Source: Strigamia acuminata (lineage: Eukaryota). Taken from it: a stretch of 64,000 bases of DNA. The stretch spans positions 30,132,001 through 30,196,000 of the forward strand of contig OX442314.1 of assembly GCA_949358305.1 (NCBI GenBank), read 5' to 3'. The notes below the pieces were generated by a model. It saw nothing but the letters and a program-made list of their open reading frames with translations. It did not search any database and was not told where the DNA came from. Below, piece by piece: positions 2,822 to 45,630 of this stretch. Within the stretch, counting starts at the first letter, position 1. Each line of letters starts with the position of its first letter. The position numbers and the translations under genes were made by a program.

Positions 2822-2837
2822 AACAAGATAGTGTAAA

Positions 2838-2920
2838 TGAGTCATCAACCAATCACAGAGCTCGGTCTAAAAAATAGACACCTGCTTTGAGGTTGACCTG
2901 TGAACTCACTCTCGTTAGTT
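2838..2920 (+). promoter_or_regulatory. Putative internal promoter downstream of G1 pol
   Basis: TGAGTCA (2838), CCAATCA (2849), Inr-like TTAGTT (2915-2920), followed by GTGAGT donor at 2997. Confidence 0.5.
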
Positions 2921-3362
2921 CCACTACAGCTGACACATCGCTTAACAATTGGTCATCTCGTGAAGTTTTCTGTCAACGCGAAAAATCGGATAAATTGTGA
3001 GTGAATTAATTTACACAAGTCTCGAAAAAGACAACTTTTATTCGATTTTATTTTAGTTAGGAGGTTTGCCCAAACTTCGTAGCTAAACCACGTGGGTTTA
3101 GGCCCGGAAAACTTCGTCTCGTCGAATTTATTCGACAGTCACCGACACCGGACGTTAATACGCGCTTGTTGGAACGAACAACGAGGTTCCGTAGTAAGTT
3201 AAATTTATTTAACGATAAGTTTAATCTTATTCCTAAAGAATTAAGTCCCTAACCACATTCTGTTAGGAAACTACGTTCGTCATTCAACGGTGCGAGCACA
3301 ACTACGTCAGCGGAAGAGAGTTTCGTGATTTTCAACCGAAGTTACGACCAACAGATTCAACA

Positions 3363-12300: not shown

Positions 12301-15300
12301 ATCTCAAAATTCACTTTTACAATTCTATCGAATTTAATTGCAACCTAATCTCGGTGGGACCTCCACGTGTGAGATTAGGTGGTAGTCTTTGAAATCCCTA
12401 AAATCTTCAAACGAAAATAATGAAGGAAAATCTACTACGTATTTCTATTTCATCAGTTTAACTTCTTCACATGGAAATATAAACTGAAAATTTAATCTGT
12501 CTATTTTTAACTTAAATCTTTTAGTTAAATATTTATCTCCAATATTCACTGTTGCAATTCAATCGAATTTAATTGCAACCTAATCTCGGTGGGACCTCCA
12601 CGTGTGACGGTGACGACCACAACTCCCATTTAACAATGGTACCGGGAAGAGATCGCAATAAATAAACAGTGAATACAATACGAGATAAATACAAGACAGT
12701 TTATTGTTGGTAAACAATAATATCAAGGCTAAATTATACATAGGACTAATGCCGACATTTGGCAAGTTAAATCAGCTATTAAACTATACAAAGAATTGGC
12801 CAACTGGCCCTAGAATAATATCACTACGGGTCTGGAATATGGGAGCGGTTTCCCCATCGCTCGACCTGATTATAGATGTCATCTTAAGCCGGATGGCTGT
12901 GTCCTGGAGTCCGATACGGCTTCGCTGGTTTCCTTGGTTCGCTGTGTAAACTATCGCACGTCGATAAATCGAATGATCTGAGCATTGCGGTTGACTTTGT
13001 CTGCACCGCCACAACTTTGGGAGGATATTGGTGTAAGTAAATGTATTCATTTACTTATCAATATTCCACTTATGAATTATATTTAATTCATATCGTTGTG
13101 AATTCTTATTTAGATATTTCGGGAATAAGTTGTCGTCAACTTATCGGTTATATTGAGTTCAATATGAGATTAAGTCTTCTGACTTGATTTTGGTCCAACT
13201 GGTTGTCGAGTTTAAGTTTTGCTGTTATAAATAAAATGAAGATTAAGCTTCCCGTCGCAACACACAATTGCCATCGATTAGAATATACGCCTTGCCATGC
13301 AGAACGGTATCAAGCGTCCCCGGCGTCGCAGCACGGTCGTCCATCGAGTGGTTGACGGTACCACGTACACAGGGGTCGATAGCTCGCGGCTCCGCACAGC
13401 AGTTTTATCTCTCGCGGTACTAATAATAGACCGACTGCTTTGGCATCGAATACCATGAGAATCAGCTTGCCAAACACTTGGTGCTACTCGTGGTTACTGT
13501 AAAACAGACTGCTTTGGCACCATCAGGTGAAGGAACCGATTCTCAACAATACCGATGCTACTCGTGGTAACGGAATACGTTCATACCGAAAAAGACAACT
13601 TGGTCCTGTCCGGAGGATACTGAATTGCACAACGGCGGGTTCTCCTTCGGCGTCGCAACCGTAAACTGTAACATTTATGCAACATAATGATCCCAGCACT
13701 TCGACTTCAATTGCCGGCGGTGGCATGATTCTGTAGAATCATGCAACGGTTCTTTGCGAATAAATCAACAAAGAACCAAAAGGTTTTTTTACGTGAACAA
13801 CGAATCATATTTCTTAAGTAACAATACCAAACAGAAAATAATCAAACAGAGCTGCAGAATGGCCGGTTGTTTGGGTTTATATAACCTGACTGGATTAAGG
13901 ATTAATCCAGTTATCCAATTGGAACATGGGTTCCACGAATCCCTCCAATCCCGTATCACCGGAAGTGGATACGGAGGAACAATGTGCTAATTCTCACCAC
14001 AACCGGAACTGGATACCCAGGACCGGAAATGGATCCACCAATCAGATCTATTGGTTGATCGATTGATCACCAAATGTCCTGTCCCGCAGAAAATGGAAGT
14101 TACATTGTATTTAACATCACAAGACATTAATATATCTTTATATTAATGTTCACAAAGCTTCGTTTCATTCTAGTAAATATAGTTTTATATTTATTTACAT
14201 GTTTTATATTCATATCTTGAATTTGCCGCTAAATCGTAATCGCGCCATCTTGTGGCAACATTGCGCATTGACAAATGCGGTTTTAGCAGACGACTCTTCG
14301 TGATTCGGCCGGAATCCTTTGATATCAAGTAGGAATGAGTGTTTATTCTTAATAAACGAACATCTTTGTATTTGAAACATCATAAATAACTTTATTCCAG
14401 ACATTTATCAGTTTTACACAGAATATCTTCGAGATATCATGATAATGGCGCAACAGCGCTTCTTTCTAAGAAAATAGGCATTTATAGCCATTGTAAACCG
14501 TCACACCTAGTAGACCCACGGTTCATCGTAGACAATCACCGACCCGGCGGTTACGAGGTTACCACTTGGACTCAGGACGAGGTCCGGATGCTCGCCAATT
14601 TAAGCTTGAAAGCTAAAAAGGCCAATGAAGAATTAGAAGTGAAGCAAGCGGCCCAATTAGCGATGACTCCCGTCACCGAGGCAACGATCCAATGCGGAGC
14701 CACTCAACCAACTGAGGCGTCCAAGACCCCCACACCGGTGGAGTCTCCCAAGACGATCACACCTCCACCAGGCCCACCAGCCAAGAAGTTGCCGGCATTA
14801 AAATCTGTTGTGACGGCGTATCCTTTCGTGGTTCCGGCAGGCATCACAAATGAACACGCGGCCGAGTGCGAGATTGACCACTACACTCCCATCATCAGGG
14901 AAGCCGCCTTGGACATTTCTCGACGATTGAACAAGAAGCGCAACGTTTATTACCAGTTGCCCATTCTCGTTATGAGATGGATAATGAATCCACTGCGCAC
15001 TGAGCCTTTTCCTGTGTTGGAACACATATGGGCACGCTTGCTCGAACGTGTGAGCCAACTTCCCGCCGCCATCCATATCCGCGCAGATTGGAGTGTCGAG
15101 CTTCCGACAGCTGAAGAGGTTTATAACCAGGAACGACAGGCCAGGGATCCACCAATTAACAGTTTGCGCCCGCTACCCGACAGCTTTGCCGCCAGAATTG
15201 GTAGACCGAGTACGACGAGAGGAATTTCCCCGCGGGAAGAAGCCCCACTACCGAGAAGTTCGTCGGAAGACTCGTCGAAACTCGTCATTGACGAGAGTAC

Positions 15301-15364
15301 CGACCCTGAGCCGAACAAGAAGGATGATGGAGAAGCAGATGGCCGCAAAAGCCCCATCATTTAG
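3363..15364 (+). CDS. G1 spliced accessory gene, ~647 aa, zinc-finger-like, disrupted by G2; join(3363-3369,4018-5099,14510-15364)
   Basis: ATG AGT G|GTAAAG phase-1 donor matches phase-1 TTTAG| acceptor at 4017; removing G2 plus one CCTA copy fuses ORF 4164.. in frame with ORF 14588..; CPFCNGGG...CHAMLCPNC motif; tandem DWAKARGKELPDYL repeat. Confidence 0.75.
5100..7002 (-). repeat. G2 3' LTR
   Basis: Direct repeat of 12603-14505 (offset 7503; ORF-track translations identical). Confidence 0.97.
7597..9078 (-). CDS. G2 accessory ORF, 493 aa, unknown function
   Basis: Only long ORF in an AT-rich interior; first ATG after a TATA/Inr; internally repeated FxxYCxxxxLxxxxFKNIxEA motif; PKKKRRKK near C-terminus. 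Confidence 0.7.
   Translation of the reverse strand: MAQKPLNMIDPKGNNKQTNLNLSSVPLGDQTEKIPDHFTLYCNRHGLDKTKFKNIIEASDYVKARNWRDRTQSQSSHQDPVRNPQTYSRNLVNQDSHTMFQTSSRGSKLEKFKPPNSVDKGEENYKPNNSRPESSLTNQSVVQNKLKLVYNRDQLISVRYANPAEAQRYVASLNLSINLPLSKELGTVNKSFGPPISTQRKDIRTPNKHLQSNNVQQRARSPITNSCLRTYDLSTKKSPQPRQFYLTPISNRKKVKQTFPLKKYYQHDNENDFKPKKESFLTNPREIRYQFEQYCKQYQLNSAEFKNINEAQQFVFRNQYRNQRLKPVPVVNLTEIQQFASGKQPCNIQNNSSQREELRTSKKRFRSPSPAGDEETSSTNQHVQKLTENPGFQSSVPRLRVKYRSPRLLRDFTIPNMGPFHVWFSNEGPIHVWFSRDDLKQKVGSSRSFTLPSEYTVCNCPKKKRRKKSVQQAERSRKFANMRAQYLAKNHVD
9321..9400 (-). promoter_or_regulatory. Core promoter of G2 accessory ORF
   Basis: CCAATCAG (9397-9390), TATTAAAG starting 9355, Inr TCATTC (9326-9321) with +1 31 nt downstream of the TATA-like box. 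Confidence 0.6.
12000..12602 (-). repeat. Three imperfect tandem copies (~190-240 bp) of the G2 5' leader, including a second PBS copy
   Basis: AATCTCGGTGGGACCTCCACGTGTGA at 12347 and 12582, degenerate copy near 12165; shared hairpin motifs. Confidence 0.85.
12582..12600 (-). promoter_or_regulatory. Primer binding site, tRNA-Gln
   Basis: TGGAGGTCCCACCGAGATT is complementary to the 3' end of animal tRNA-Gln; 2 nt from the LTR. Confidence 0.85.
12603..14505 (-). repeat. G2 5' LTR
   Basis: Adjacent to the PBS; repeat of 5100-7002. Confidence 0.97.
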
Positions 15365-18391: not shown

Positions 18392-18619
18392 GATTTGGTT
18401 CGAGACGATTGGCAACGATTGGAAACGATGGCGTTGGTAAGGTGTTGCTGTCCTGATCAGCAAGCGAATTGTGACTTGATTGATCTGGCAGGCACCCTAT
18501 ATACGAATCGTTTGTACACGTCTACAAGACGTCTCGTGTACCAATAGCGTTCGTATTGGCTACGAGGCGCGGACGTGACGGAAGACTATTTTTGATCTTC
18601 CTGGTGGTTTAGTTTGTCC

Positions 18620-28417: not shown

Positions 28418-28729
28418 AAACTTTTGTTAGTTTCATTAAGACAGTCATGTTGGTGAACAAAGTTATGATGTCATATGTCATGTGATATCAAATTACTTGG
28501 GTTCCAGGGTAAGGTTTGAACAGGCTAATCACCAAGTGTAGTGCTAAACTTGACCTTTTTACTCAAAAAATCAAAAAATAGTATTTCAACACAGTAAAGA
28601 ATCATGGGTGTTGTAACTGTTTGTAACAATGTGAGAGAGAGGTGCATTTAAATATTTGAAAGAAACATAGCTCAGGTCATGTGAATACTTTATTTAACAA
28701 TAATTTTAACAATTGATTTTCTTTGATAA

Positions 28730-30487: not shown

Positions 30488-31055
30488 ACCTTGGTATAAT
30501 GTCGTAAACATATCTTTAATTTTTCTTTTTTTCATTAAACAATTAAAAAATTGAAAAAATTGAATAAAAGTTATTTAAAAATTTGAAAAAATTGAGTCAA
30601 AGTTATTGATAAGTTTGAAAAATTTGAAATGATTGCAAATATTCTAATTATTAGAATGATGTTTACGGGTATTTGTAAATTTATTTGTAAATTAGTTATT
30701 TGCTTCATATCGTAGCAAATTTTGTAATTTTCAAAAATAGTCTCGTTCTTTCAATCTTACAAATCCTCATTAAATCAAATCAGTAAAAACAATACCGAAA
30801 CAAAAAACTTCCACTCGTCACTGAAAAAAGCATTGCAGTGAAAACGGACTTTATTCCATAAAAAGATTCTATTTTAAACACAAAATTTGAAATAATGCAA
30901 CTATTTTCTTATGAAAAACACGAACAAATAATTTTCTTGAATAATCAATAGTGGGGGAATGACAATCAGAAGTGATCGGAGAAAAATTCTAAATGCGCTT
31001 AAGAAAGATTCTAGCGATTGTCATCCTCCTCGATTGAACCGAGTATAATCGTCTT

Positions 31056-34000
31056 TCAATCCGTCAAATCATCATCAAAACAAGTCAGGATATTGTTCAA
31101 TGGATACGGACTGTTAGCCATCACTTCCAAAAATTCAACGCAAGAAAACGACCCATTAGCTTTAGCCTTCCTCTCGTTAACCTCCATCATGTTCTTAAAT
31201 CGACTCATCTCATCCTCCGCCATTAAACACCAAGTGCCAAACTTGTCAACATCTTTCACAGTTCTAGCGCTGCAATTCTTGAATTTTGTTTCCAGAAATG
31301 CAAAACCAAAATGCGCCCTTTTAAATTCAACCATTTCTTCGTCAGTAGGAAAACACCAATTAAAAAACATTTTGTACACATCTTTCCCAACAAAATACAC
31401 AAAATGTGCGGCCGCAAACGCCCCAATCTCCATCTTAATCTTCTTAATCCAACCATCCCAACCGCCGCTCTCGAAAACCTCTTCGAGAAATCGATCGAGT
31501 TCCAATCCGCCGCCATTTTCAATAATCTCCGAGCAATTTGCAACGTTGGATTTAATCATTTCGTATTTATACTCGACATTTTCATTTCTAATAACCGCTT
31601 TAAAAAACTCCAAATTCCCAACACCCATCAATAATTTCCTTTCGTGTTTTAGAAAAAACCCTTCTTTAAGATTACCGGGGAGTTTGTGCCACAAAACCAG
31701 GAAAATCCGCAAAGAAAAATACACCTTTTTCAATATCATTTGCGTAATTCTTCGCAATAAAATCAAAAGGTCATTCTGACTAACAAGATGCAACAAATAG
31801 CCAATTGTGGGCAGAAAATATTCTTGCCAAGGTCTGTTTGCGAACACCAATCGGTAAAGCAGCCCTATTGCATCGTTTTCGATGATTGACAAGAGTTGTT
31901 GTTTAGTCGCACGACTCAAACAAAAATAAAAAAGGTCAGAATGTGGTAAACCGCCCGGAAAAAACAAAATCTCCATCACTTTGTTTCTCCCCGTCTGAGT
32001 CATTCGATACCAAACGTATTTCAAAGGTTCAACCGAATCCATCGGAAACTTGCTAAGAAAGACCTGACACGCGCTGTCGTTCATTATTTTCCATTTTCCT
32101 TGAATAAAAGTCGTCCAAAGTTGGAAAATCTCCACTTCAGTGTTGACAAAACGACCAAACATCCTCCGCGATCGATTATGCTGAATATAAGCCGGCAACA
32201 TCTTCCATAAAGTAGGAATCGCTTTTTCCAAACAAAACATGCACGCCAAACTAAAAACACTTCCATTGGCTCCTAAAGCATAAAATATTACATTATATTA
32301 CATTATATTATTACACATGTATCGTATTACATTCAGGGTGACCAGGTTTTGAAAATACAAAACCGGTTACCCTAATAATATTGGATTATATTAGGTGCAT
32401 TCAATCTGGGTTAGAAGAAGTGACTATCACTTTCCTTCCTTTCCTCAAAGTCACTTTTCATTGAATGGACTTACTTACCACCAGACTATCCATTTCCATT
32501 TACCGTGTGCCACACGTTTGAATTTACCGTGCACACGTGTGAATTTACCGTGTTCATCGACACCAAAATGGCTGCCACAGTAGCTTTGTTAAATGTGCAA
32601 TGCGCACGCACATAAGTGACTTTTAAAAGGTGGAAAAGGAACTTTCCAGTTACTTTCCTGAAAGTCACTTAGGTGACTTTACTTGGTCAACGTGTGACGT
32701 AATTATCGTCACTTCCGCCCTTTGAAAGGCAGTTAAGTCAGTTAAGTGACTTTCTACTAGCAGATGGAACGCACCTATTATATCATTCCGTGCCTAAAGT
32801 GTATTTGTTGTTTCTCAGTAATAAAGCAACAGTTTCCCTTTTGTCCACCGTGCCGTGGACAGTCCATGCAATGTCATTCGCGTATTCTTTTGAAATGTTG
32901 CGGTCGGTCCACGTGTATTTCCTAAGGTAAATTAACCATTCGTATATTTGACTGCCTGTTATAAAAATTGCGTCGTAAAGTGCTGCGATCCGGGTTTTTA
33001 TCCACTTAATTTCTAATAAATTAAGCAGAAACCGCAGGTGAATGCTTTACAAGACTTATATCGCGGCCGAAACTTGTCTAGGGTTAAGTTTACGGAAATA
33101 GGAATAAAAAGACAGTTTATTATGGTAATAAAAATCACACAAATGTTTTATTCGATAAATTACAATATATACTAATTATGATTATGAATATCACAGAATA
33201 AAATGAGCGGGAAACAATGAAACAAAGGAAGGGCTTGCAACGACTGTTGCAAGCTACAAAGCGTCAGAAATGGCGCTTAAACAACTTGAAGTTGTTAGGC
33301 GAAGGCAAATTGTCTTCGTTCTACGAACTCACGAACGATGGTCGAAGACGATGGTTCTCGTGGGCTCCTTCTACGGCTCGTGCGACGGCTCGGCGGCGGT
33401 GGTTGACGGCTGTAGGCGTCCGGCTTTCGTACGATGGCGGTGGCTGTCGTTCGCGCGACAGCGACGGCGATGGTTCACGATCGTCGGGAATCTTCTCTTC
33501 TCGATTGCTGGAATTAGCGACGGCTAATTCAAGCAGGATTGCTGGCTTTGTGCGTTTGATACACAAAGATAGCAGGTGAAACTGAGTTACAACGGTCCTC
33601 TATCAATACTTTTCTTTCAGGAGCAAAAGCAGTGATGTTGAGGTTGTTGTTGTATTTTTCAGAGTCCCGATTTGAGCCAAGACGCGAGCCCAGCACGCTT
33701 CAATATTGCGCAGAAAACCTGCGCACTTAGCTCAAATGGGTGCAACTAGTGGTTATTACACCATATTGCACCATAACGGCTAATAACCGTTTTCACCCCG
33801 GACAACCTGGGGTGATATGTGCCTAGAGAGGATTTCTCCCCTCGGTCACATGATCTGACTTGGCGTGTGCCACAGTCAAATTAATTAGAAGATAATTAAT
33901 TTAATCTTCTAAGTTGGTGAATATTTTGAGATCACCACACATCCCCCCATTTAAGACGAATCTTACATGGAGAGAAAATGAACGAACCAATTTATGATTC

Positions 34001-37000
34001 GTCCATGGTCTGAGTTCGCTCAGGCGTCAACGGGCGCATCATATCCGTGGTGTCGTCCCTCGGGTTGGACCGCTCGTTAACCGTACACAGGTCGCGACCT
34101 GCGTTTGGTCCGGAGACCATTCCAGGGTTGACATGAAGCCAAACCTGGATGATTCTTGCCGAGTTCGCTCGGTTGAAGAATCCTAGCGCCGCGAACTCGA
34201 TTGGATCCTCTGGCGCTAATCGTGCTCTCAGGAGTCGATCATGGAGCACCGATGGTGGGCTTAACACCCGGATGTGGTCCTCGAGCCACATAAACACCTG
34301 CCTCGACAACTTGTGGTTGTTGCTAAGCAGTGTTCGCGTATCCGGCGTCAAATAGAAGTGCGGATACAGGCGCATTAGGGTCTTGAAAGCCGACTCTTTT
34401 TTCAGCGGCTTGACCTTCGTCTCCGGCTTGGCTGGCGGCGGCGGCGGCGGACGTGAGTCTTCCGTCGTGGCATCGTCAAACTGGCACTGCGGGCCCAAGA
34501 AAACCAACGCAGGTGCGGAGGTTGACGAGGGTGTGACGCCTCGTCCCGGTGCTCGACCCACACCGGGGAGCTGACGGGTTTCGACTACCCGTTGAACTCC
34601 GGCTGGAGTTTGAGAACTTCCGGCGTTCTCTGGCCAAAATGAACATCCAGCGCCCTCTTGGGCCGACTGGAAAACAGCCAGTGACGCAGCTGCTGTGGCG
34701 CTTGTAACTGGAAGCGGTGGTCTTCCGGTCATTCGCGCCGTGGCCTTCGCAAAGGACCACTCGGTTCGCAACCGAACGGCGGCCTCTTCTTCGGTCTCAC
34801 CGTTTGCTACGACTTGCTTTATTAGCTCGGCTAAGATCGTAGGCGGGTCGAGCCTGAGGTGGTACCACAGCTCGACTTTCTTCTCCGACAGGCCCATCGG
34901 CGCGGTCCAAAGGTACGTTATGGCCGCTAACGCCTGTCCTGGCGAAGGAAGAACACCAGGGTACAACACCCTAGTCATCCCCGGAATTAGCTGACGCTGA
35001 AAATCCATCAGACGGGGATCATCAATGGTATTGATGTCGGAGACTTCTAGCCTTTCAGCTAGTCTCTGCCAGTCCTTCTGCGACTCGGCGATCTGGGCGC
35101 TTTGGTATGCGTCCAGCTTCTGGAGCACTTCCTGCTGTGCTCTAATGGGTTGCTGCTCGTAGCAGGTCCATTGTGGGCCGAATGACTCACTAAAAAATGG
35201 CCGGAGTTGCAGGTTGCTAACTCCAGCCGGCAAGCGGGAAACATATCCTTGTTCGGGCAAGCGGCTAGCATGTCCAGGTACTGGCACGCTACAGTCGGGA
35301 AAAATATCACCGACAACACGTCTCATGGCGTATGGAGTAGCCGAGTTGTCCACTTTGAACGTGGAGGCGGTTCGGCTACTTCGGGCGGACTTAATTGTGG
35401 AGTCCGATTCAAAACTCAGCGAAGACGACGAGCCAAACGACTCTGGTGTCCGTCCTCGTCGCGACTGCGGGCGTGATGGCTGCGCGTCAGTCGAATATGG
35501 GCGTGATCGCTTCTGACGTTCCTCTCGATCGCGGCTTGATTCGCGGAACATCGGTCGGACTGGAACCGGCGGAGGGAGTTGCCCCACCCTCAAATCCTCG
35601 TCTTGCGGCGGAGGATTGATGGCCGCTGGGGCCGGAATTTCATCTTCTTGATAAAAAGGGAGAGCGCAACGCGCTTGCTCCTCTGCCTCGTGTTCTCGAG
35701 CCAGTTGTCGATTTTCGTCGACGCGAAGCTGCACCGCGGCAGCTCTGAGTGCTTTGGACGGGAAAAATCCCGGAAAATCGTTAAAACACCCGGCGAGCGC
35801 CAACTGGTGGAGCTCGGTTTGTGTGACGGGAAGTTGTGGGTTCCCGTCACGAACGGATTTGCGATACCGTTTAACGACTTCGCGTTGTGTCGTCTTGAGG
35901 TTCTTCCTCAATTGGGTTAGAGCACCGTAATTAATTCCGGTACTCTTTAGCGCTCTTCTGCGCTCGTGACGCTCTCGTGGCGTCACTGGCCACTGGTTGT
36001 GCAGCAACTCTGCTGCAAGCGGTCCTGGGGGGCTCTCGTCGAGCGTCCACTCGATTTCGTCGACACCGTCCACGTGAAGGCGCTCGATGAATCTTCCTTT
36101 TGCACCAAATCCTTGCAGCGCTGATCTGCTGAAGTCGTGGCGCAACTTCCACCAGGTATTGTTTGCCGTCTTCAGTCTTCTGATTTTTTCGGGCAATGCC
36201 GCTCGAAAAATCAGCGGGTGCTGAGTCGGCACGTGATCGGGAAGCGCGAATGGCGTTTCTCGATCCCTCTCGATCTGTATTCGAAGAAAAATAAATAAAT
36301 TAGTTTATTTAAAAATAAACAAATAATTTCTTATTTGAAATATTTTTTAAGCTTAGCGCTTGTGGCTGTGAGTCACTAAGGGATGTTGGTTGTCATGGCA
36401 ACTCCCTTCGCACATGCTTGAAGCACGTGACTTTTATAGCCGCCATTTTTATTTTTTAGCGGCTTGTGTTTGAAGTCAGGAAAAGTGAAATTACTCAATT
36501 TTTCTGACTTAAACACTTGGTAAAAATTTATTCTAATAATTTACCCGTTGTTGAAGCGTCAATTGAACGTCTTCATTTGCCCCTTCCATGGGCATTTCTC
36601 CGTCCGCCTGGAGTTGGATCGCTTCCTCGTCCATTCTCTTTCGTTTTCCGGTAATTTCGGAAATTCTTTCGTCTTGAAAGAGAAATAATACATAAATCTT
36701 ATGTTTTATCAAATTTTTCATACAGAAAAATTACTTACGATCAGGTTGTCGAACTATTCGGGTCGTAACGTAGGCGATGCGATGCATACACTCTCGAAAC
36801 TTTTGAAAAAGTGACTAAGTTCGTTGATTGCAAACACGAACTTGGATTAGAGACGCTTTGTGACGTCACTAATTATAACGTATGATTAACGTTGTCATTC
36901 GAGTGGGTACTACGAATGACGTCACGAGATTGCTTTCTCGGATCTTTTGGGTAAACCCAAAAGGTGAAAGACAACACTATGTCTTGGCTCGCGGAACGCG

Positions 37001-40000
37001 AGATCTCAAGTTGTACTTTGACTTTCGCGAAGTACAATCCAACTTGTTTAGATTGTCATCAGCATCGTCTCCAATGTCAGATGAGTTATATACTTCATTG
37101 TTTGAAATTTTCTCTTTTTCTAAAAACATTTCCTTTTCTAGATTTTCATCAAGAGAAACATTTTCAAGTCGCTGGTTTATTTCATCGACTTCGTTATTTT
37201 TGAGTTTCGATTTTTTACTCGATTCCGTGTTTTCGACAGGAATTTTGGATAATTTAGCATCATCCAAGGTATTAACAATATTTTTTGTTTTTTGACCCAC
37301 TTCCTCCCCTTCCAGCCAAATTTCTTGGTTGAAAACGGGAAAGTACGGCATTAATTCAGTGCCGTGAACAGCTGGATAAATTTTATTATCACTCAGCCGT
37401 CGAAGTTGAAAGGCGCCTCCTTGTAACCTTTTGATAATTACATAAGGCCCATTCCTTTTCGGTGAAATGCCTGCTGCTATTCCTTTAGCGGCATTTGAGA
37501 GAATATGAGACTCTCGCCAGACTAAATCATTTTGTCTGAAGTTGTCGAATTTCTTATCTGATTTTTCAGCTTCGACACGGCGTCTCAAATCTAAGACGTG
37601 AGACATCATATGCTGATACGTCTCTGCAATTATTGTTTCTAATTTCTGAACATATAAATGCGGATTTTTTGGATCAATGACTAAAATTCCTTCCGGAATT
37701 CTTGGATCCCAAGGAATTCTTAATTCTCGGAAAAAATTTAAGAAAGCAGGAGAATAATCTCTGCCTCTTGTTACAGTTGTTCTCAAACTGAATGCAAATT
37801 CGCGTAGATACTCATCCCATTGGTCATGAATATCTAAATAAATCGAAACTAAATATTTAATATCTCGATTGGTTCTCTCCACAGGATTGCTTTGTGGATG
37901 ATAAATCGATGTCGGTGTTCGCGACATGTCGAATTTTTTGCAAAATTCTTTATAGACCTGTGATCGAAATTGTGGTCCATTATCACTTATGATTTGTCTC
38001 GGAAATCCGAAAGTCATTGATAAGTGATAAATTGTGTTGGCAACTTTTATTGCCGTTGGATTACACATTGGAAATAATTCGGGCCAATGTGTAGCGACAT
38101 CTACGATGACGCAAATGTGGGTATTGTTTTTTCTGGTTCTTGGTTTGGGACCAGACAAATCCACACTGAGGCAGTCAAATGGTCCAAATGGTCCAATTTG
38201 AGCGCCTTCAATTTCGGTCTTTGATCTCGGCTTACATGCCTGACATCCTTGACAATGTTGAATAAAACGTGTAATATCACGTTTCATACCTTTCCAGGTA
38301 TAAACTCTTCGAGTTCGGTACATTGTCCTCGCAATGCCTGGGTGGCCGGACAGTGGATGTCCGTGCATCAACCAAATGATTTTATAAATCAATTTTCTTG
38401 GCACAACAACTTTAAGTGCCCTACCATCCTCTCCCAATTCATCGGTGGAGGTAGGATGATAATGGAGTAGCATATCTTCTTCAATGAGATAAGTACTCGC
38501 GTGTCTTTCAAAGTTTCTTCTTTGAAGACGAGTTACTATGTAACTTGGATATTGCTTGTTTAGCAAGTAATTGCGAATATGTTGGCAAAATTCGTCTGCT
38601 TTTTGCGCTGCAATAATGTCATCTCTCGTTGGAGGATCACATTCTAATTGCTTCGCAATTTTAGCTGCAAATGCTTTAATTAAAACATTTGTTGTTGGCA
38701 GCTCGAATTTTTTAGCCATCATAGCTCTTAATTCGACGTCAGGGGTTCCTGACGGATCATGCATGTTAATACAAAAATTAATTAATGCTTGATCGTCGTC
38801 ATTAACTATTATTGACTTGGGTAATTCGTTCAATTTTCCCATTTGCCAACTTCGGCAAGGAGATGGACAATATGATAATAAATCATCATTATCGCCATCG
38901 TCTTCTGGTTCGTCAGGTGCGCTGACAGGTGCACGTGACAATGCGTCTGCTATTACATTTAGCGGACCTTTGACGTATTGTATTTCGAACGAATACGCCA
39001 TCAGCTCCATTTGCCAACGAGCTAATCTGCCCGACGGGTCAGATAACGACATCAACCACTTAAGTGCTTGGTGATCCGTTTGTACAGTGAATGTAGTGTA
39101 CTCTAAGTATGGGCGAAATTTGCGTAATCCCCATACTACTGCGAGACATTCTAATTCTGTCACAGTATAATTCTTTTCAGCGGGTTGCAAGCTTCTGCTT
39201 GCATACACGCATGGCATTTCGACTTCTTGGCCATCCACAATTTTCTTTTGTGTAAGGGCTGCACCCAACCCTTGTTTACTGGCGTCAGTATGAACAATAA
39301 ATGGCATGTACAAGTCAGGCATCTTCATTGTTTCAGCATTCGTAAGCAAGTCTTTTATTGCGTCGAATGCTGCCTGATGATGCAGTTCCCAATCGAACTC
39401 CGCATCTTTCTTCAAGAGAGGCCTTAGTGGTTCTGCCACTGTGGCCAAATTCTTGATTAGGCGGTGAAAGAAATTCACCATGCCTAGAAATCTTTGTAAT
39501 TCCTTAAGATTGGTAGGAGCCGGAAATTGCGTAATTGCAGCGACTTTTTTAGGGTCTACTGCAAGTCCTTCTACTCCTACTTTGTAGCCTAGAAAAATTA
39601 ATTCCTTTCTACAGAGATGCGTCTTGCCAGGGTGCGCATGTAAATTAGCTTCTGCCAATTTTTTAAACACTATATCTAAATGTTTAATGTGTTCTTCGAA
39701 CGATTTGGATACAACAATTATGTCATCCAAATATGCCCATGCAAATTTTCTGTAAACGTCACCCAAAACCTTTTCCATCAATTCTTGGAAAGTAGTTGGT
39801 GCGTTTACTAATCCGAAAGGCATGACTAAAAACATTAGTCTTCCCATTGGGTTCCAGAAGGCAGTTTTTTCTCTGTCTTCAGGTCGCAATTCTATCTGCC
39901 AATATCCCTTGGTCAGATCTATAGTACTGACCCATTCGAATTCTCCGATTTCTCGCAGAATTTCCTCAATTGTTGGCATTTGAGGTGGGTTGTACTTAGT

Positions 40001-43000
40001 ATGTGTATTGATGGGGCGAAAATCAATGCACAAGCGTGGGTCGTTTCCTGGTCGCATGACTAGGACTGGCCGCATTCCGTAATCGCCTTCAGCTTTGACG
40101 ACTACGCCTTTGTCAATCATGTCTTGACAAAGTTGTCTGATTATTTCCCTTTTTTGAGGGTTTATGCTCTTAAAGGGGACACGGATGGGTTTCTCCGTGT
40201 CAAGCTCAATTTTGTGCTTAACCAGGTGTGTTTTACCTGGATCTTTAGAAATAATCCTTTTATGTTTGGATAACATCTTTTCTAATAATTTGGATTGCTC
40301 CAAATTTAAGTTAGCTTCTTCGACTAACTTTTGGATGAAATTCTCTTCATCAATTTTGCCTTGAGTTACACTTGCAGCGTAAGCTTTTGCAAAGGTCATA
40401 AATGAGGAATCGGGTTCCTCTATTTTCTCCAAATAACGATCCAGCAACGCTTGTGGAATGTAGGGTAAATCTGCATCCATAGGTTGCGTGAAATTCCAAG
40501 ACATCGTCTGTGGATTAGGTTGGATTTTTAATTTATTCATAAAATCGCAACCCAATAGTACCATTGGATACTTATTTGGTATTACGATGAACGGATGACG
40601 TAACGTGCCATGTGTCCATCGAAATGAAAGATGGATGGTTCCATCTGGAGTGACTTCTTCACTTGCCGTCGTAACTCTGACACCAGGTCCGATAGGTCGT
40701 AGATATTTTTCTAGACCTAGTTGATTAATAACTGAAGTGGCTAGGAAGCTTTTATTTGCTCCTGAGTCCAACATTCCGGTTATTACACCTTTTAACGTTT
40801 CTAACTTTAACGTCGGAAGGTCTTGGCTGTTTGGTATTCCAGCCACTTTGCACTCAAACTTGCGCAATTTATGAGGAACTGTAATTGGAGGCTCCAAAGG
40901 CAATTCATCTAATAACTCATTGGTATCAAGAGTTGTAGCTGCAAATAACTTAATGCACTCCTCAATTCCAGGTGTCTCTGGAACTGAGCTTGGTCTATCG
41001 TCTTTAACTTCGACTTTATCTTGAATATTGGAAGTGTCTTCTTCAGTCGGGGTTTCGCCGACAATCTCCTTTTTTACATCAAGAGATCCTTTTTCTTTTA
41101 GTTCTGTTTGACGAATTAATTCATCAATAACTTCTCCAACATCTTCCATTATCTTCAGATTTTCATTCTCTGATTCCGATTTCGGAGGTGACGCAGCGTC
41201 CACTAGACCTGATGGATCTGCGTCTACAAGTTTTTTCGAAACATGTCAGTTATGATCTTGACTGCTTTTTCAAACTCAGCTGTTGACACTGGTTTGTCCT
41301 TTTTAGAGGAAGGGCAGTCTTTTTGCCAATGCCCTAATTTTTTGCATAAATTGCATGGATCAGTGGCAGGCGATTTCTTTTTCGTTGCTGCTGGCGAGGC
41401 AGAACGAGAACGAGCGTCAGACCGGCGCTCTGGCGACACCGCAGGTGACTTTGAATTCCTTTCGGTATTCACCTTTGATGCGTCAAATGAAACATTTTTT
41501 GGTTTCATCCTTGGCTTCCATTTGCCCGCAACGGGGTTATTTTTTGCTAACAACGCCGCTGCTTTGGCCAATAAAGCCATCGTCTCGTCTCCTGTTTCCT
41601 CCTCCTCTTCAGCTTCTTCAGCTTCAGACGACGGAGTTTCAGCTCCAGTTATATTTGCGTGTAACTTAGGGACTGAATGAGGATTTTTGACGTCCTTTTT
41701 GGAAGATTCTTTTTTCGAACTCTTCTCATCCACTTCGTCTAGAAAGTCTTCGTAACTAGGTGGCTGCAACAATTTCAAACCATTAAAGGTTTCATTGTTT
41801 TGCTCAGCGAGTCTTTTCTCTCGCTTTAAGTACGCTGACCTTTCGGCTTCTGTAAGATAAGCTTTGTACTTTTCGTCAATGCGCAATTGATTGACTTCCA
41901 TGAACTCGTTTAACTCGGAGAATTTCCCCGGGTCGGGAGCGTCCGACATCATCAGAATATTTTTACTATATTCTGTGAGGCCAGCTCTAAACTGATCATC
42001 TGCTGTTGCATCAGTAACAGCATGTGGCATTCTGCCAAGCAGATTCTCTGCTCTTAGCATGTACGAATGTAAGCTTTCGCCTTTTCGTTGCTTAAGACAT
42101 CTCCAGAGCGTTTTGATGTCTTCGCTCGATTCACCAAATTTAAACATAAATTGTTTAACGAAGTCATCCCACTTCGTGAAGTCTTTCCTGCGAAACCACT
42201 CCTTGACACCGCCAACTAGTATTCTTGGTACTAGATGGGCCAATGCACCTTCACAGCTAAAACTGTGAACTTTGCCTAGTTCGAATATTTCCAGCAAGAG
42301 GTTTGACCCTGCTTGCCAATTTCCATTATAGGCATGTGGGATAACTCGATCCCATCTAATGAACTTTTCATCTGTTGTTTGATGAGTCCATTTATCAGAA
42401 GTAAATTCACTTATTTTTTGCAAAATAATTTTATCCCTTCTGCTTTTTCGCTGTTGTTGAGCATTTTGCCTCAACAACTGGTCAATCTCATCTTTCGTGT
42501 AGAAATCGGGTCTTTGAGTTCTACTACGTGTTCTGTGACGAGATCGCCCTCTCACACTGGGACGTGAGGAATCTGTATCTGACGCAGATTCATGATTCGG
42601 ATTTGGCGGCGGATCAGGGTCCGGAGGATCGTCGCCATCTGGCGGACGACGGTCTCCATTTGGTGGTCCCCTTCCATTTCGATTGCCATTCGAATTGTGG
42701 TCACGTGAGTGGCCACCTCCATGTCCATCTGAACTATCTCCACCTGGTGGGTCACCACCTGGCGGATTTCCACGGTATCTCGGCCCATCACGGATGTCGT
42801 TATGACAATCTCGTTTTGGTGAGCCTTCTCGCGGATTATCGTGTGACCGTCCACGATCGTGTGGTTTCTCACGTTCTTTATTCTTTTTCTCTAGCATTCC
42901 GATTAATCGGTCGCTATTGCTAAAGAATCGATCCGAATCTTGCGTAACTTTTGGGGAATGATATTCGGTCGGGTCTGGTTGTCGCTTTCGCTTTTTGCGA

Positions 43001-45630
43001 CTGTGATGACTGTTACGGCTTCCATGACTACTGCGTGAGTCATCACTGTCAGTCCAACTTGATTGTCGACTGACTTTTGGTTTAGCTGATGTTAAATCAA
43101 TCAACTCAGGTGATTTGGAAGCACCTTTTTGCAAAACTGGGGCTGGCTTTGCAAAATTATCTTCGCCACAAACGTCTTGTACTTTTTGTACTACTACTGC
43201 AAAGTTCTCTTGTACCGTCAATAGATCTGCGCGAAGAATTTCGTTTTCACGAGCTTGCGCAGCTAAGTCGGCACGTAATAACTGCTCTGCAGTACTTTGA
43301 CTTTTGGCGGCTAGACCAGCATCAATTACGGACTGCTGTCGAGCGAGAAATACTTCGTTTTCTCGTTGTGCTAATCTCTTAGCTCTTGCTGCTTGCTCTG
43401 CAGCATGATTCTCGTAATTTCGAGAAGTGGAGGGAATTACTTCCCTCGCTCGAACTGGGGCGGTTAGTTCGGCAGTCATTAAATTTGTGTTGGCTTCTCG
43501 CAAATTTGCGTTGGCCAATCTCAAATTTTCATTAGCAATTTCTAAATCTTTTTGGGCTTGATTTAGTTGCTCGAGCCTTTGTTGTTGCTCTTCGTCAGTA
43601 ATTAGCCAGGAAGCTTTTTCCTGTTCTAATTGTAACAACTTAACATGGTCATTCGCACGTTGTTGTTTTAGTTCGGCATTTTGCTGATGCATTTCTGCAC
43701 GCATTCGCTCGAACTCTGCTTGCAAGCTTGTTCTGACGATTTCAACGTCCTTTTGGCTTTGTTTGCGAACCATAGCTTTGTGGATTTGTTCCACAGTCAT
43801 TTCGCTAGTGACTTTTACTCCCTCGAGCCTAGCTTGCTCACGGAGTGCGTCCATCATGGTAACACGCACGGGAGAATGAGAAACTTCCATATTGGAGTTC
43901 TCAGAATCTTGCTGTGCTGCACCTTGAACCGGTGATGAATTCAGCGAGTGCTCTGCACTTGATGATTGAATTCGTAAATTCAAATCATCGTTTTGCGACT
44001 TGGAACGGCCACTTCCAGTTGGATTGTTTAAGTCCAACTGGCCGCTTGGCGGGGATGGCTTTTGTCGCTCCAACGCTTGCGTGAATTCATTCACGATTAA
44101 CTGTGCCGAGTTACAGTTAGCTGTTTGATCCATAGTTTCAAACAGTTCTTGTGACTCAGTCACTTCTTGATCCACGGCTGGTAGATCGATCGCCACTCGT
44201 CTCTTCGCTGGTCTGCCTCTCGGTCTCTTTTCGCCTGGAGTCGCCATTTTTCAAATGAAGAAAAAGAAAGGATAGAGAAGAAAGATAAGCAAGATAAAAA
44301 TGGCGGGTAAATTTTAAACTATCAAAATTTATACAATGACTATCCCGGACGGGCCCCCACGTGCTGCGATCCGGGTTTTTATCCACTTAATTTCTAATAA
44401 ATTAAGCAGAAACCGCAGGTGAATGCTTTACAAGACTTATATCGCGGCCGAAACTTGTCTAGGGTTAAGTTTACGGAAATAGGAATAAAAAGACAGTTTA
44501 TTATGGTAATAAAAATCACACAAATGTTTTATTCGATAAATTACAATATATACTAATTATGATTATGAATATCACAGAATAAAATGAGCGGGAAACAATG
44601 AAACAAAGGAAGGGCTTGCAACGACTGTTGCAAGCTACAAAGCGTCAGAAATGGCGCTTAAACAACTTGAAGTTGTTAGGCGAAGGCAAATTGTCTTCGT
44701 TCTACGAACTCACGAACGATGGTCGAAGACGATGGTTCTCGTGGGCTCCTTCTACGGCTCGTGCGACGGCTCGGCGGCGGTGGTTGACGGCTGTAGGCGT
44801 CCGGCTTTCGTACGATGGCGGTGGCTGTCGTTCGCGCGACAGCGACGGCGATGGTTCACGATCGTCGGGAATCTTCTCTTCTCGATTGCTGGAATTAGCG
44901 ACGGCTAATTCAAGCAGGATTGCTGGCTTTGTGCGTTTGATACACAAAGATAGCAGGTGAAACTGAGTTACAACGGTCCTCTATCAATACTTTTCTTTCA
45001 GGAGCAAAAGCAGTGATGTTGAGGTTGTTGTTGTATTTTTCAGAGTCCCGATTTGAGCCAAGACGCGAGCCCAGCACGCTTCAATATTGCGCAGAAAACC
45101 TGCGCACTTAGCTCAAATGGGTGCAACTAGTGGTTATTACACCATATTGCACCATAACGGCTAATAACCGTTTTCACCCCGGACAACCTGGGGTGATATG
45201 TGCCTAGAGAGGATTTCTCCCCTCGGTCACATGATCTGACTTGGCGTGTGCCACAGTCAAATTAATTAGAAGATAATTAATTTAATCTTCTAAGTTGGTG
45301 AATATTTTGAGATCACCACAAAAGGTCTGGCTTCAAGAATTTTGCAAGACGAATGTTTTCCGCTTGTTTTCGTACTTCGTCTTCGATTTTCTTCCAATCT
45401 TCGCGGTGTTGCTGCTCTTTGATCTCACGATCTAAATTGTACTGAGGCGAACTCAGGTGTTCAATATAAGTTTTTAAAAAGTAGTCAGTTATTAGTCGTT
45501 TCACGTGATCTTGTCTCCAGAACGATAAGGCAAGCGCGTTAGTCGAGATGCGCTGTAAGGTCGGGCTGCATTTGGAGTTGTCAATGTCACGTTTGAGACA
45601 CTCGTATGCCGATATAGCAGTAGCGGCCAT
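31056..45630 (-). CDS. Uncharacterised host-family gene (~569 aa) interrupted by G4; join(45630-45321,32976-32794,32272-31056)
   Basis: Removing G4 and one AAAG copy gives LKPDLYDAIFITGSQIYEWLIYLRKYTW, collinear with paralog LKPELYYAISTTGREIQKWLIYLAKYTW; removing 32793-32273 restores YTLGANGS. Confidence 0.8.
32394..32775. mobile_element. MITE with GGTGCRTTCMATCTG TIRs
   Basis: GGTGCATTCAATCTG ... CAGATGGAACGCACC flanked by TA; related TIR at 58426-58989. Confidence 0.7.
32981..33939 (-). repeat. G4 3' LTR
   Basis: Direct repeat of 44362-45320 (offset 11381). Confidence 0.97.
33992..36787 (-). CDS. G4 spliced accessory gene, ~819 aa; join(36787-36739,36672-36545,36274-33992)
   Basis: Donors GTAAGT and GTAAAT, polypyrimidine acceptors TTTCAAG and TACAG; phases 1 and 0 both match; no evident signal peptide or TM segment. 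Confidence 0.75.
36813..36925 (-). promoter_or_regulatory. Putative internal promoter downstream of G4 pol
   Basis: Two TGACGTCA palindromes (36917, 36861) and Inr-like TTAGTC (36818-36813) ~30 nt before the ATG. Confidence 0.5.
36977..41230 (-). CDS. pol: Gypsy Pol polyprotein (PR-RT-RH-IN), in -1 frame to gag
   Basis: LDSGA, MPFGL, YLDD, TDAS, HHCC, DLSGP, SDNGPQF, GPY; Gypsy domain order. Confidence 0.98.
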   Translation of the reverse strand, partial: LVDADPSGLVDAASPPKSESENENLKIMEDVGEVIDELIRQTELKEKGSLDVKKEIVGETPTEEDTSNIQDKVEVKDDRPSSVPETPGIEECIKLFAATTLDTNELLDELPLEPPITVPHKLRKFECKVAGIPNSQDLPTLKLETLKGVITGMLDSGANKSFLATSVINQLGLEKYLRPIGPGVRVTTASEEVTPDGTIHLSFRWTHGTLRHPFIVIPNKYPMVLLGCDFMNKLKIQPNPQTMSWNFTQPMDADLPYIPQALLDRYLEKIEEPDSSFMTFAKAYAASVTQGKIDEENFIQKLVEEANLNLEQSKLLEKMLSKHKRIISKDPGKTHLVKHKIELDTEKPIRVPFKSINPQKREIIRQLCQDMIDKGVVVKAEGDYGMRPVLVMRPGNDPRLCIDFRPINTHTKYNPPQMPTIEEILREIGEFEWVSTIDLTKGYWQIELRPEDREKTAFWNPMGRLMFLVMPFGLVNAPTTFQELMEKVLGDVYRKFAWAYLDDIIVVSKSFEEHIKHLDIVFKKLAEANLHAHPGKTHLCRKELIFLGYKVGVEGLAVDPKKVAAITQFPAPTNLKELQRFLGMVNFFHRLIKNLATVAEPLRPLLKKDAEFDWELHHQAAFDAIKDLLTNAETMKMPDLYMPFIVHTDASKQGLGAALTQKKIVDGQEVEMPCVYASRSLQPAEKNYTVTELECLAVVWGLRKFRPYLEYTTFTVQTDHQALKWLMSLSDPSGRLARWQMELMAYSFEIQYVKGPLNVIADALSRAPVSAPDEPEDDGDNDDLLSYCPSPCRSWQMGKLNELPKSIIVNDDDQALINFCINMHDPSGTPDVELRAMMAKKFELPTTNVLIKAFAAKIAKQLECDPPTRDDIIAAQKADEFCQHIRNYLLNKQYPSYIVTRLQRRNFERHASTYLIEEDMLLHYHPTSTDELGEDGRALKVVVPRKLIYKIIWLMHGHPLSGHPGIARTMYRTRRVYTWKGMKRDITRFIQHCQGCQACKPRSKTEIEGAQIGPFGPFDCLSVDLSGPKPRTRKNNTHICVIVDVATHWPELFPMCNPTAIKVANTIYHLSMTFGFPRQIISDNGPQFRSQVYKEFCKKFDMSRTPTSIYHPQSNPVERTNRDIKYLVSIYLDIHDQWDEYLREFAFSLRTTVTRGRDYSPAFLNFFRELRIPWDPRIPEGILVIDPKNPHLYVQKLETIIAETYQHMMSHVLDLRRRVEAEKSDKKFDNFRQNDLVWRESHILSNAAKGIAAGISPKRNGPYVIIKRLQGGAFQLRRLSDNKIYPAVHGTELMPYFPVFNQEIWLEGEEVGQKTKNIVNTLDDAKLSKIPVENTESSKKSKLKNNEVDEINQRLENVSLDENLEKEMFLEKEKISNNEVYNSSDIGDDADDNLNKLDCTSRKSKYNLRSRVPRAKT
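41190..41236 (-). promoter_or_regulatory. -1 ribosomal frameshift signal
   Basis: A AAA AAC heptamer (41236-41230), 5-nt spacer, stem GACGCAG/CTGCGTC. Confidence 0.8.
41224..44247 (-). CDS. gag: Gag (1007 aa)
   Basis: Capsid-like region (WF...FMFKFG...LKQRKGESLHSY), CCHC knuckle CNLCKKLGHWQKDC, directly upstream of pol. Confidence 0.93.
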   Translation of the reverse strand: MATPGEKRPRGRPAKRRVAIDLPAVDQEVTESQELFETMDQTANCNSAQLIVNEFTQALERQKPSPPSGQLDLNNPTGSGRSKSQNDDLNLRIQSSSAEHSLNSSPVQGAAQQDSENSNMEVSHSPVRVTMMDALREQARLEGVKVTSEMTVEQIHKAMVRKQSQKDVEIVRTSLQAEFERMRAEMHQQNAELKQQRANDHVKLLQLEQEKASWLITDEEQQQRLEQLNQAQKDLEIANENLRLANANLREANTNLMTAELTAPVRAREVIPSTSRNYENHAAEQAARAKRLAQRENEVFLARQQSVIDAGLAAKSQSTAEQLLRADLAAQARENEILRADLLTVQENFAVVVQKVQDVCGEDNFAKPAPVLQKGASKSPELIDLTSAKPKVSRQSSWTDSDDSRSSHGSRNSHHSRKKRKRQPDPTEYHSPKVTQDSDRFFSNSDRLIGMLEKKNKEREKPHDRGRSHDNPREGSPKRDCHNDIRDGPRYRGNPPGGDPPGGDSSDGHGGGHSRDHNSNGNRNGRGPPNGDRRPPDGDDPPDPDPPPNPNHESASDTDSSRPSVRGRSRHRTRSRTQRPDFYTKDEIDQLLRQNAQQQRKSRRDKIILQKISEFTSDKWTHQTTDEKFIRWDRVIPHAYNGNWQAGSNLLLEIFELGKVHSFSCEGALAHLVPRILVGGVKEWFRRKDFTKWDDFVKQFMFKFGESSEDIKTLWRCLKQRKGESLHSYMLRAENLLGRMPHAVTDATADDQFRAGLTEYSKNILMMSDAPDPGKFSELNEFMEVNQLRIDEKYKAYLTEAERSAYLKREKRLAEQNNETFNGLKLLQPPSYEDFLDEVDEKSSKKESSKKDVKNPHSVPKLHANITGAETPSSEAEEAEEEEETGDETMALLAKAAALLAKNNPVAGKWKPRMKPKNVSFDASKVNTERNSKSPAVSPERRSDARSRSASPAATKKKSPATDPCNLCKKLGHWQKDCPSSKKDKPVSTAEFEKAVKIITDMFRKNL
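44342..44359 (-). promoter_or_regulatory. Primer binding site, tRNA-Pro
   Basis: TGGGGGCCCGTCCGGGAT, one mismatch to the canonical TGGGGGCTCGTCCGGGAT. Confidence 0.85.
44362..45320 (-). repeat. G4 5' LTR
   Basis: Adjacent to PBS; repeat of 32981-33939. Confidence 0.97.

Follow-up and report, generated by a model that had tools for sequence, protein, structure and literature searches.

Can an element that replicates through RNA keep a spliced gene on its sense strand? Sense-strand spliceosomal introns should vanish in an RNA-based cycle unless the element controls its own splicing or export. The question was raised by a Ty3/gypsy element in Strigamia acuminata, found in a stretch of 64,000 nucleotides that is called the window here. 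A gene behind pol, ORF3, was read in this element as three exons. The sequence, the copy data and a second element of the same layout gave good support for ORF3 as a real accessory gene of an active element, one that contains introns and is not env.

The element and the predicted exon structure of ORF3

The element had been described as intact and young, and this was borne out. It was inserted recently. The two LTRs were 100% identical (959 bp each), gag and pol were open, and a 4-bp target site duplication (TSD), AAAG on the plus strand, lay at 32977-32980 and 45321-45324. The empty-site joint 32976/45321 was found in 4 of 4 read runs. Direct LTRs with a TSD, gag followed by PR-RT-RH-IN, a primer-binding site (which we take to be tRNA-Pro-like) and a polypurine tract indicated Ty3/gypsy. 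Pfam placed the domains of pol at 157-237 (PR), 403-556 (RT), 619-751 (RH) and 948-1117 (IN). A slippery AAAAAAC at 41236 suggested a -1 frameshift from gag to pol.

Table 1. Coordinates of the features in the window
Feature	Position	Strand	Basis or remark
Ty3/gypsy element, 12.3 kb	32981-45320	-	LTR pair, TSD, gag and pol frames
5' LTR, 959 bp, TG..CA	44362..45320	-	sequence identical to 3' LTR
5' LTR motifs	Inr-like TCAGTT 44966; GTGAGT donor 44713; AATAAA 44533/44502	-	motif scan
Primer-binding site, starts TGG	44340..44359	-	sequence
gag, 1007 aa, CCHC knuckle at C-terminus	41224..44247	-	sequence
pol: protease, RT, RNase H, integrase (gypsy order), zero internal stops	36977..41245	-	Pfam
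Putative internal promoter: TGACGTCA 36924 and 36868, Inr-like TTAGTC 36818	36788..36976	-	function inferred
ORF3 exon 1, coding part, 49 nt, ATG 36787	36739..36787	-	sequence
ORF3 intron 1, 66 bp, GC 0.20, GTAAGT..AAG	36673..36738	-	sequence
ORF3 exon 2, 128 nt, KRKR motif, second ATG 36634	36545..36672	-	frame analysis
ORF3 intron 2, 270 bp, GC 0.31, GTAAAT..CAG, hairpin-rich	36275..36544	-	sequence
ORF3 exon 3, 2283 nt, 760 codons without stop, first ATG 35551	33992..36274	-	sequence
Polypurine tract	33940..33952	-	sequence
3' LTR	32981..33939	-	TSD AAAG (+ strand) outside element ends
Element A, comparator gypsy family	2822..15364	+	pol 36% identical to that of the ORF3 element
Element A post-pol gene, predicted introns	2997-3056, 3194-3266, 3370-4017	+	sequence prediction
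Element A post-pol gene, ATG and long exon	ATG 3363, exon from 4018	+	sequence prediction
Element B, LTR element, interrupts element A	5100-14505		

The exon coordinates, intron lengths, GT..AG ends, matching phases and product of about 819 aa given by the sequence-only reading were all reproduced exactly. Joined in frame, the three exons gave 819 aa and one stop. Exon 2 had one open frame out of three, which was the in-phase frame. Over exon 3, the other two sense frames held 31 and 26 stops, and the three antisense frames of ORF3 held 17-31. ORF3 was on the same strand as gag-pol and was not of the antisense type of Grande, Retand and Boty. The exon 3 frame ran 30 nt upstream into AT-rich intron 2 and then closed. 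Its first 241 codons were open without an ATG, and the start codon is therefore likely gained by splicing. By simple arithmetic, were stops as frequent as in the other frames, 241 open codons would have a chance of ~1e-4.

The splice sites were ranked with a simple score within 36100-36976. Among 39 GT sites, the donors took the first and second rank; among 53 AG sites, one acceptor came first and the other shared second place. The sense strand of the element held no GTAA[AG]T site besides these two donors. Of 3000 block shuffles, 5 yielded a path with two introns in frame, under criteria set after the sites were seen. Intron 1 fitted the host introns in size and GC (7 of 10 sized 61-69 bp, GC 0.08-0.35), and its acceptor was AAG, compared with YAG in 10 of 10 host acceptors checked. 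Intron 2 had a branch-like CTAAT ~30 nt 5' of its acceptor. Both intron lengths were multiples of three, and the in-frame ATG of exon 2 had a better start context than that of exon 1. GT[AG]AG sites were present in gag, and the predicted structure of ORF3 does not need them. A loose mini-intron filter run over the window was uninformative, as it missed intron 1 and gave three wrong-strand matches. Judged from these sites and frames, ORF3 is very probably spliced through two host-type introns.

The AT-rich segments could instead stay unspliced as promoter or RNA-structure DNA, with a product of ~520 aa starting at ATG 35551 and a TATA within 'intron 2'. This was consistent with TATAAAAG at 36438 in that segment, with E-box and AP-1-like motifs close by, with its many hairpins and with the failure of the loose filter. 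However, an Inr was absent 31 nt past the TATAAAAG TATA, and this reading would account neither for the 241 open codons without ATG upstream of 35551, nor for an exon 2 that is in phase, nor for the element's sole pair of GTAA[AG]T sites. We consider it very improbable that the segments are unspliced. Intron 2 folded well (z -6.3), and because it ranked only ninth among 113 windows of the element, it was not singled out as RRE-like. Such a special status was rejected, the whole element being over-structured. Also rejected was an RNA-folding switch by which the short transcript alone would expose the splice sites, as accessibilities were equal in both contexts.

Start of the ORF3 transcript

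Two TGACGTCA sites and an Inr-like motif had been noticed after the pol stop and before the ATG, and they were present there. TGACGTCA had no other occurrence in the element. The CRE and Inr motifs of the putative promoter were chosen post hoc, and TGACGTCA is a palindrome within an RNA that is hairpin-rich throughout. In the motif scan, a TATA box was absent at -31 of the proposed start and a DPE match was not found there. The view of ORF3 as a separately transcribed gene was upheld in part: an internal promoter was plausible, but the TATA was missing from its expected place, and the Inr and GTGAGT donor of the LTR offered an env-style route.

Splicing from a donor of the LTR is the usual route for genes behind pol. 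The mRNA would then begin in the 5' LTR and join donor 44713 to an acceptor before exon 1, 2 or 3 without an internal promoter, and the protein could start at ATG 36787 or 36634. The TCAGTT at 44966, a leader free of ATG and the GTGAGT donor agreed with this, as did a TAG at 36869 with an AT-rich tail resembling the weaker host acceptors. The same route is described for CERV (PMC10309623) and Tor3a env (PMC4402516). However, the gap between pol and exon 1 was 40% GC, unlike introns, and its acceptors had 7-8 T per 20 nt compared with 7-14 (median 11.5) in host acceptors. The internal ORF of element B was preceded by CCAAT boxes and a TATTAAA at 9355 with an Inr 31 nt beyond, and internal promoters therefore look available in the LTR elements of this genome. 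We consider an LTR-initiated mRNA rather unlikely; ORF3 is probably transcribed from a promoter just past the pol stop.

Genomic copies and neighbouring elements

Intron-shaped segments were present in many genomic copies. A contig of 486 nt spanned 36480-36965 without any difference, and thereby covered intron 1 completely as well as the intron 2 donor. Its depth was 5964 compared with 93 for a flank contig, and the data suggested a family of about 60-140 copies. The survey of other copies for retention or precise loss of the introns pointed to retention, with no joint at either intron among the 15 of 29 joints listed. One splice-site variant was seen among the rows listed, at 36277, and it kept the YAG acceptor. 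Among the variants listed, silent changes made up 7 of 15 in exon 3 and 4 of 8 in each of pol and gag, and none of the 15 in exon 3 created a stop. The silent-change excess in exon 3 was weak (P 0.05-0.12; 40 of 332 variant rows). Contigs of 88-90% identity also covered exon 3. Run X6 held only flanks and LTR pieces and was left out as evidence on ORF3.

Element A had the same layout as the ORF3 element, with its last intron in phase and a TTAGTT Inr-like site. A pol tree of 116 rows placed it as the sister of the ORF3 element (SH-like 98), a pairing that joins two long branches (FastTree, tree without clade-labelled references). Its post-pol protein was unrelated to that of ORF3. Element B was non-autonomous; it was without gag and pol and kept an accessory-type ORF. 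The four accessory ORFs of the window were basic, Pro/Ser-rich, TM-less and mutually unalignable, and a CxxC..CxxC motif was present in two of them. No homology was found between ORF3 and the accessory ORFs carried by elements A, B and C.

A recently captured host gene, carried with its promoter and introns as neutral cargo, was also considered. Third-position GC was 0.59 in exon 3 compared with 0.38 in gag and 0.34 in pol, and the introns resembled host introns. However, no relative of exon 3 was found by phmmer among 1.84 billion representatives or by a word-indexed search (near and shorter lengths), and the gene occurred at family-wide depth and in the 88-90% identical subfamilies. Exon 3 shared the RNA structure excess of the element (mean z -2.1; host genes ~0), and at this position the sister family held a gene unrelated to ORF3. 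We consider a captured host gene very improbable.

The ORF3 protein and its proposed role

The ORF3 protein had a pI of 8.97, 9.8% Arg, three K[KR]x[KR] motifs, one N-glycosylation sequon and one loose match to the NES pattern. No TM segment was assigned because the maximum 19-residue hydropathy was 1.01, and the N-terminus was polar. By hydropathy, the earlier claim of no evident signal peptide or TM segment was thus confirmed. Exon 3 of ORF3 had no match in Pfam, PHROGs, PDB sequences or the ESM Atlas and no relatives in metagenome contigs. The C-terminal piece of the element A protein had no relative in the ESM Atlas, eight window proteins gave no match in an exact look-up, and there was no Rfam match. 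Similarity to viral fusion glycoproteins was not found in Pfam, PDB or the representatives, and the fold model was poor. A clear match to env or to a captured host gene, which would have spoken against the sequence-only reading, was not found among the databases searched. The structure search that it had proposed was run: single-sequence AlphaFold2 models were of low confidence (mean pLDDT 40.3 and 41.9), and fold searches with them gave no match at E<=0.001 and only generic helical-hairpin matches (Z<=5.8). By its sequence, the ORF3 product does not look env-like.

HIV Rev helps unspliced genomic RNA out of the nucleus, and a related role is the favoured proposal for ORF3. The ORF3 mRNA would start from the promoter just behind the pol stop and be spliced through two introns, and the basic nuclear protein of 819 aa would promote nuclear exit of unspliced genomic RNA, as does CERV of Cer1. 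With packaging confined to unspliced full-length RNA, the introns would persist through reverse transcription. Splicing would stay incomplete owing to weak sites (AAG acceptor, GTAAAT donor), and few copies would derive from spliced RNA, or selection would act against them. We hold this model as a whole tentatively, with slightly less than even confidence. On the properties of the protein, we lean a little towards a nuclear regulator. A role in genomic-RNA export is doubtful, with no homolog, no confident fold and one loose NES pattern to link the protein to it.

The gene could also be real and internally promoted while its product acts as a transactivator of the LTR or host chromatin, or as an anti-silencing factor (Tas-like or VANC-like). 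Internal promoter and spliced 3' accessory genes are the design of foamy viruses, where Tas activates the LTR (PMC13220597), and gene23 of maize Grande is nuclear with its own promoter (PMC7264820). The basic, unalignable accessory ORFs of the window are as fast-evolving conflict proteins would be, and the CxxC..CxxC motif points the same way. However, neither a DNA-binding domain nor a known repressor-binding motif was found in the ORF3 protein, and intron retention in genomic RNA would need another mechanism. Such a transactivator or anti-silencing factor is unlikely.

The arrangement had been thought near-unprecedented, which did not hold, as Cer1 CERV (PMC10309623) and Oikopleura Tor3b/Tor4b (PMC4402516) precede it. 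CERV, in a C. elegans Ty3/gypsy element, is described as a spliced, non-env, post-pol gene that exports unspliced genomic RNA. Like ORF3, it is a non-env ORF lying between pol and its element's 3' LTR with a candidate NLS and no homologs reported beyond its lineage. Its mRNA is multi-exon and spliced while the genomic RNA retains the splice sites, as predicted for ORF3 from sequence alone. However, CERV begins with three exons in the frame of gag, and its mRNA has its 5' end in common with gag, whereas all predicted coding exons of ORF3 are behind pol. No sequence similarity was found, and export, a feature of CERV, is only proposed for ORF3. Tor3b/Tor4b env is likewise a sense gene, transcribed from an internal promoter, Penv, in pol or in the gap behind it; the ORF3 promoter is putative. 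In contrast, the Tor product is a transmembrane glycoprotein and Penv transcripts are described as unspliced, whereas ORF3 is without a TM segment and is predicted to contain two introns. The ORF3 arrangement is likely a variant of the one known from these nematode and tunicate elements.

Foamy virus tas/bet are 3' accessory genes with an internal promoter and regulated splicing (PMC13220597), both predicted for ORF3; however, foamy viruses are vertebrate retroviruses with env and no homology to the ORF3 element, which is without env. The ORF3s in LTR elements of bdelloid rotifers (PMC5408684) and the extra ORFs of plants are also family-specific and sit between pol and their element's 3' LTR. 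The non-env rotifer ORF3s are described as TM proteins or as enzymes that can be recognised. Those plant genes that have a promoter of their own, such as gene23, are antisense (PMC7264820), and their introns are harmless to genomic RNA, whereas ORF3 is sense. Among LTR-retrotransposon proteins controlling splicing or export of their own RNA, CERV alone was found described in the literature surveyed.

More tentatively still than the export model, these elements may represent a gypsy lineage of this animal group that is so far undescribed and has a foamy-virus-like design. Each family would have a self-contained sense gene behind pol, with its own promoter and host-type introns kept through reverse transcription at ~100 copies, encoding orphan nuclear regulators that evolve fast. 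Such a gene would also be kept by a non-autonomous element without gag or pol. An active high-copy family with a sister family would allow a direct test of whether Rev- or Tas-like regulation evolved repeatedly outside retroviruses. Long ATG-less ORFs behind pol may be misfiled as env remnants or missed by annotation.

Predicted structure of the accessory gene

The target element, a Ty3/gypsy LTR retrotransposon, was bordered by a 4-bp target duplication. Its 959-bp LTRs had 100% the same sequence, starting with TG and ending with CA, with a PBS after the 5' LTR and a PPT before the 3' LTR. The gag frame, which encodes 1007 aa with a CCHC knuckle, was open, as was pol, which encodes protease, RT, RNase H, and integrase; a slippery heptamer was located at their overlap.

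The sequence-only reading had placed a three-exon gene behind pol, and its exon and intron positions were reproduced exactly, giving a predicted product of 819 aa. Exon 3 carried an open frame of 760 codons, while the other two sense frames contained 31 and 26 stops, and the reality of this frame was not in doubt. Its first ATG appeared only after 241 codons, and the frame closed 30 nt upstream of the proposed intron-2 acceptor, within sequence of 7-20% GC. This meant that the start must be supplied from elsewhere. Of the 39 GT sites scored in this region, the two donors ranked highest; GTAA[AG]T matched the sense strand of the element only at these donors. Exon 2 was open in one frame only, the one needed. 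Ten host introns in the window were used as the splice control, with one junction set one base off by its anchor. All ten were AT-rich and seven measured 61-69 bp, and intron 1 (66 bp, GC 0.20) resembled them. The intron-1 acceptor was AAG; host acceptors were YAG in 10/10. An ATG-initiated two-intron in-frame path occurred in 5 of 3000 shuffles preserving the local GC landscape, under criteria fixed after the sites were seen. A looser mini-intron filter missed intron 1 and had poor specificity. Both intron lengths (66 and 270 bp) were divisible by three, so the phase match reflected a single frame throughout. As a sequence feature, the predicted accessory gene is real.

The host genes of the control had mostly 61-69 bp, AT-rich introns and one GC-AG intron. 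One gene was an intronless LRR gene by Pfam, and we take host genes of this set to be CCDC47-like and STAMBP-like.

Features in and around the target element and its neighbours
Feature	Position	Strand	Description
Target element	32981-45320	-	Ty3/gypsy
Predicted accessory gene exons	36787-36739, 36672-36545, 36274-33992	-	819 aa
Element A	170-16100	+	second gypsy family; pol 36% identical to target over 781 aa
Element A post-pol motifs	AP-1-like 2838, CCAAT 2849, TTAGTT 2915	+	promoter-like, after pol stop
Element A predicted introns		+	60 and 73 bp in non-coding leader, both AT-rich; 648 bp in phase
Element A predicted accessory gene	ATG 3363	+	in phase with long GC-rich exon from 4018
Element B	5100-14505	-	non-autonomous LTR element; identical 1.9-kb LTRs, TSD CCTA, PBS and PPT; lacks gag and pol
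Element B orphan ORF	9078-7597	-	493 aa, basic
Element C	17714-19536	-	gypsy remnant: integrase fragment, then 260-codon frame
Host genes (splice-site control)	47800-52450	-
Host genes (splice-site control)	53829-55214	+
Inverted-repeat arms	28699-30489, 45759-46908		long, 94-98%
413-codon frame	31056-32297		similar to frames at 26278-27945

Copies in read data

Three runs from two studies covered the region, with the run type guessed as DNA or unrecorded. Single-contig depth in run X1 was 5964 (36480-36965) and 9964 (pol) versus 93 for the flank contig, and in run X3 it was 2592-4130 on the element versus 29. These ratios gave a family copy number of about 60-140, as a rough guide only. The empty insertion site was present in 4/4 runs, indicating that the insertion was recent or polymorphic. 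A 486-nt contig running from the putative promoter region through exon 1, intron 1, and exon 2 to the second donor showed zero differences from the element. Intron retention or precise loss among copies had been proposed as a check; among the 15 joints listed of 29, 0 removed either intron. Among 40 variant rows listed of 332, exon 3 had 15 variants (7 silent, 8 replacement, 0 stops), and 4/8 were silent in each of pol and gag. The excess of silent changes in exon 3 (7/15) over a neutral expectation of 0.25-0.29 was weakly supported (P 0.05-0.12). All 12 indels listed of 37 were in LTRs or the gag leader. Exon 3 was also covered by contigs of 88-90% identity. Two X3 contigs stopped matching exactly at the exon 1/intron 1 border (36738), with different letters on the exon side; these could be chance matches, or could reflect inserted sequence or an alternative first exon.

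Transcription start and proposed function

An internal promoter had also been claimed, and its motifs were present. The 190 bp after pol contained an Inr-like TTAGTC and two TGACGTCA sites, against an expectation of 0.24 such sites for the element as a whole. However, no TATA box was found at -31 of TTAGTC, and an LTR-started mRNA could also supply the gene. Besides an Inr-like site, the LTR carried at 44713 a GTGAGT donor that could be spliced to an acceptor in the post-pol gap, with the TAG at 36869 as a candidate. This gap was not intron-like, which favoured a first exon there. Judged from these motifs, transcription rather probably starts internally, after pol.

The product was basic (pI 8.97, Arg 9.8%), with Pro/Ser-rich stretches between helical blocks, three NLS-like motifs, and 7 Cys. 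A maximum hydropathy of 1.01 and one sequon agreed with the TM-less, non-env product described earlier; by its sequence, the protein is not env-like. No relatives were found in any library searched (Pfam, 1.84 billion representatives, PDB sequences, PHROGs, ESM Atlas, metagenome contigs, and a word-indexed search), and the predicted folds and the fold searches, a check proposed earlier, were uninformative.

The genomic RNA would have to reach the particle with both introns unspliced. According to PMC10309623, the post-pol non-env ORF of Cer1 encodes the C-terminal half of CERV. This protein is translated from a five-exon mRNA and is needed for export of unspliced Cer1 genomic RNA. Since Cer1, so described, is the closest worked-out case with a post-pol non-env ORF, a nuclear CERV/Rev-like role was favoured; that the protein is exactly such an exporter of genomic RNA is a tentative, somewhat doubtful assignment by analogy. 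A Tas-like or anti-silencing role came next.

In the accessible parts of the cited papers, Tor3b/Tor4b env has an internal promoter and an unspliced transcript (PMC4402516), non-env ORF3s are known from other elements (PMC5408684, PMC5718144), plant extra ORFs are mostly antisense (PMC7264820, PMC11963269), MDG1 sORFs are on the sense strand without a separate promoter (bioRxiv 2025.03.14.642691), and foamy virus offers a further comparison (PMC13220597). The parts available of PMC13524379, PMC6431247, PMC7998251, PMC13547354, and PMC8220671 held no matching case. The literature search found no non-env gene that lies behind pol on the sense strand, is self-contained, and bears introns, a weak negative with subscription journals, Repbase entries, and supplements outside its reach.

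Compared with shuffled sequence, the RNA of the element (33940-45320, minus strand) was more stably folded throughout, with a mean z of -2.8 over 113 windows (-2.8 in gag, -3.2 in pol, and -2.1 in exon 3). Four host regions gave a mean z of about 0, with 2/59 windows at or below -2.5. A special structure in intron 2 was rejected because many other parts were at least as structured. Splice-site exposure by a transcript-length switch was also rejected, as accessibility was equal in long and short transcripts.

Neighbouring elements

In an RNase H-integrase tree that left out 6 composite rows, element A and the target element were sisters among 114 database relatives (SH-like 98), on long branches. 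Element B interrupted the long exon of element A; counted by coordinates, the two exon pieces share a single frame of 648 codons. The PPT and LTR start of element A were near 16090-16100. No alignment was obtained between the accessory proteins of element A and the target element. The element B ORF was preceded by CCAAT boxes, TATTAAA at 9355, and an Inr at 9326 (TATA-Inr spacing 31 nt), with a probable 5'-UTR intron upstream. The same design in element A and the orphan ORF with TATA-Inr in element B suggested that the post-pol arrangement looks like a lineage trait, not a one-copy accident. The CxxC..CxxC motif of the element C frame was weakly like that of the element A ORF (pairwise E 0.001).

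The inverted-repeat arms enclosed the gypsy insertion site and the 413-codon frame. This unit looked like a DNA element that carries a gene and that later received the gypsy insertion.
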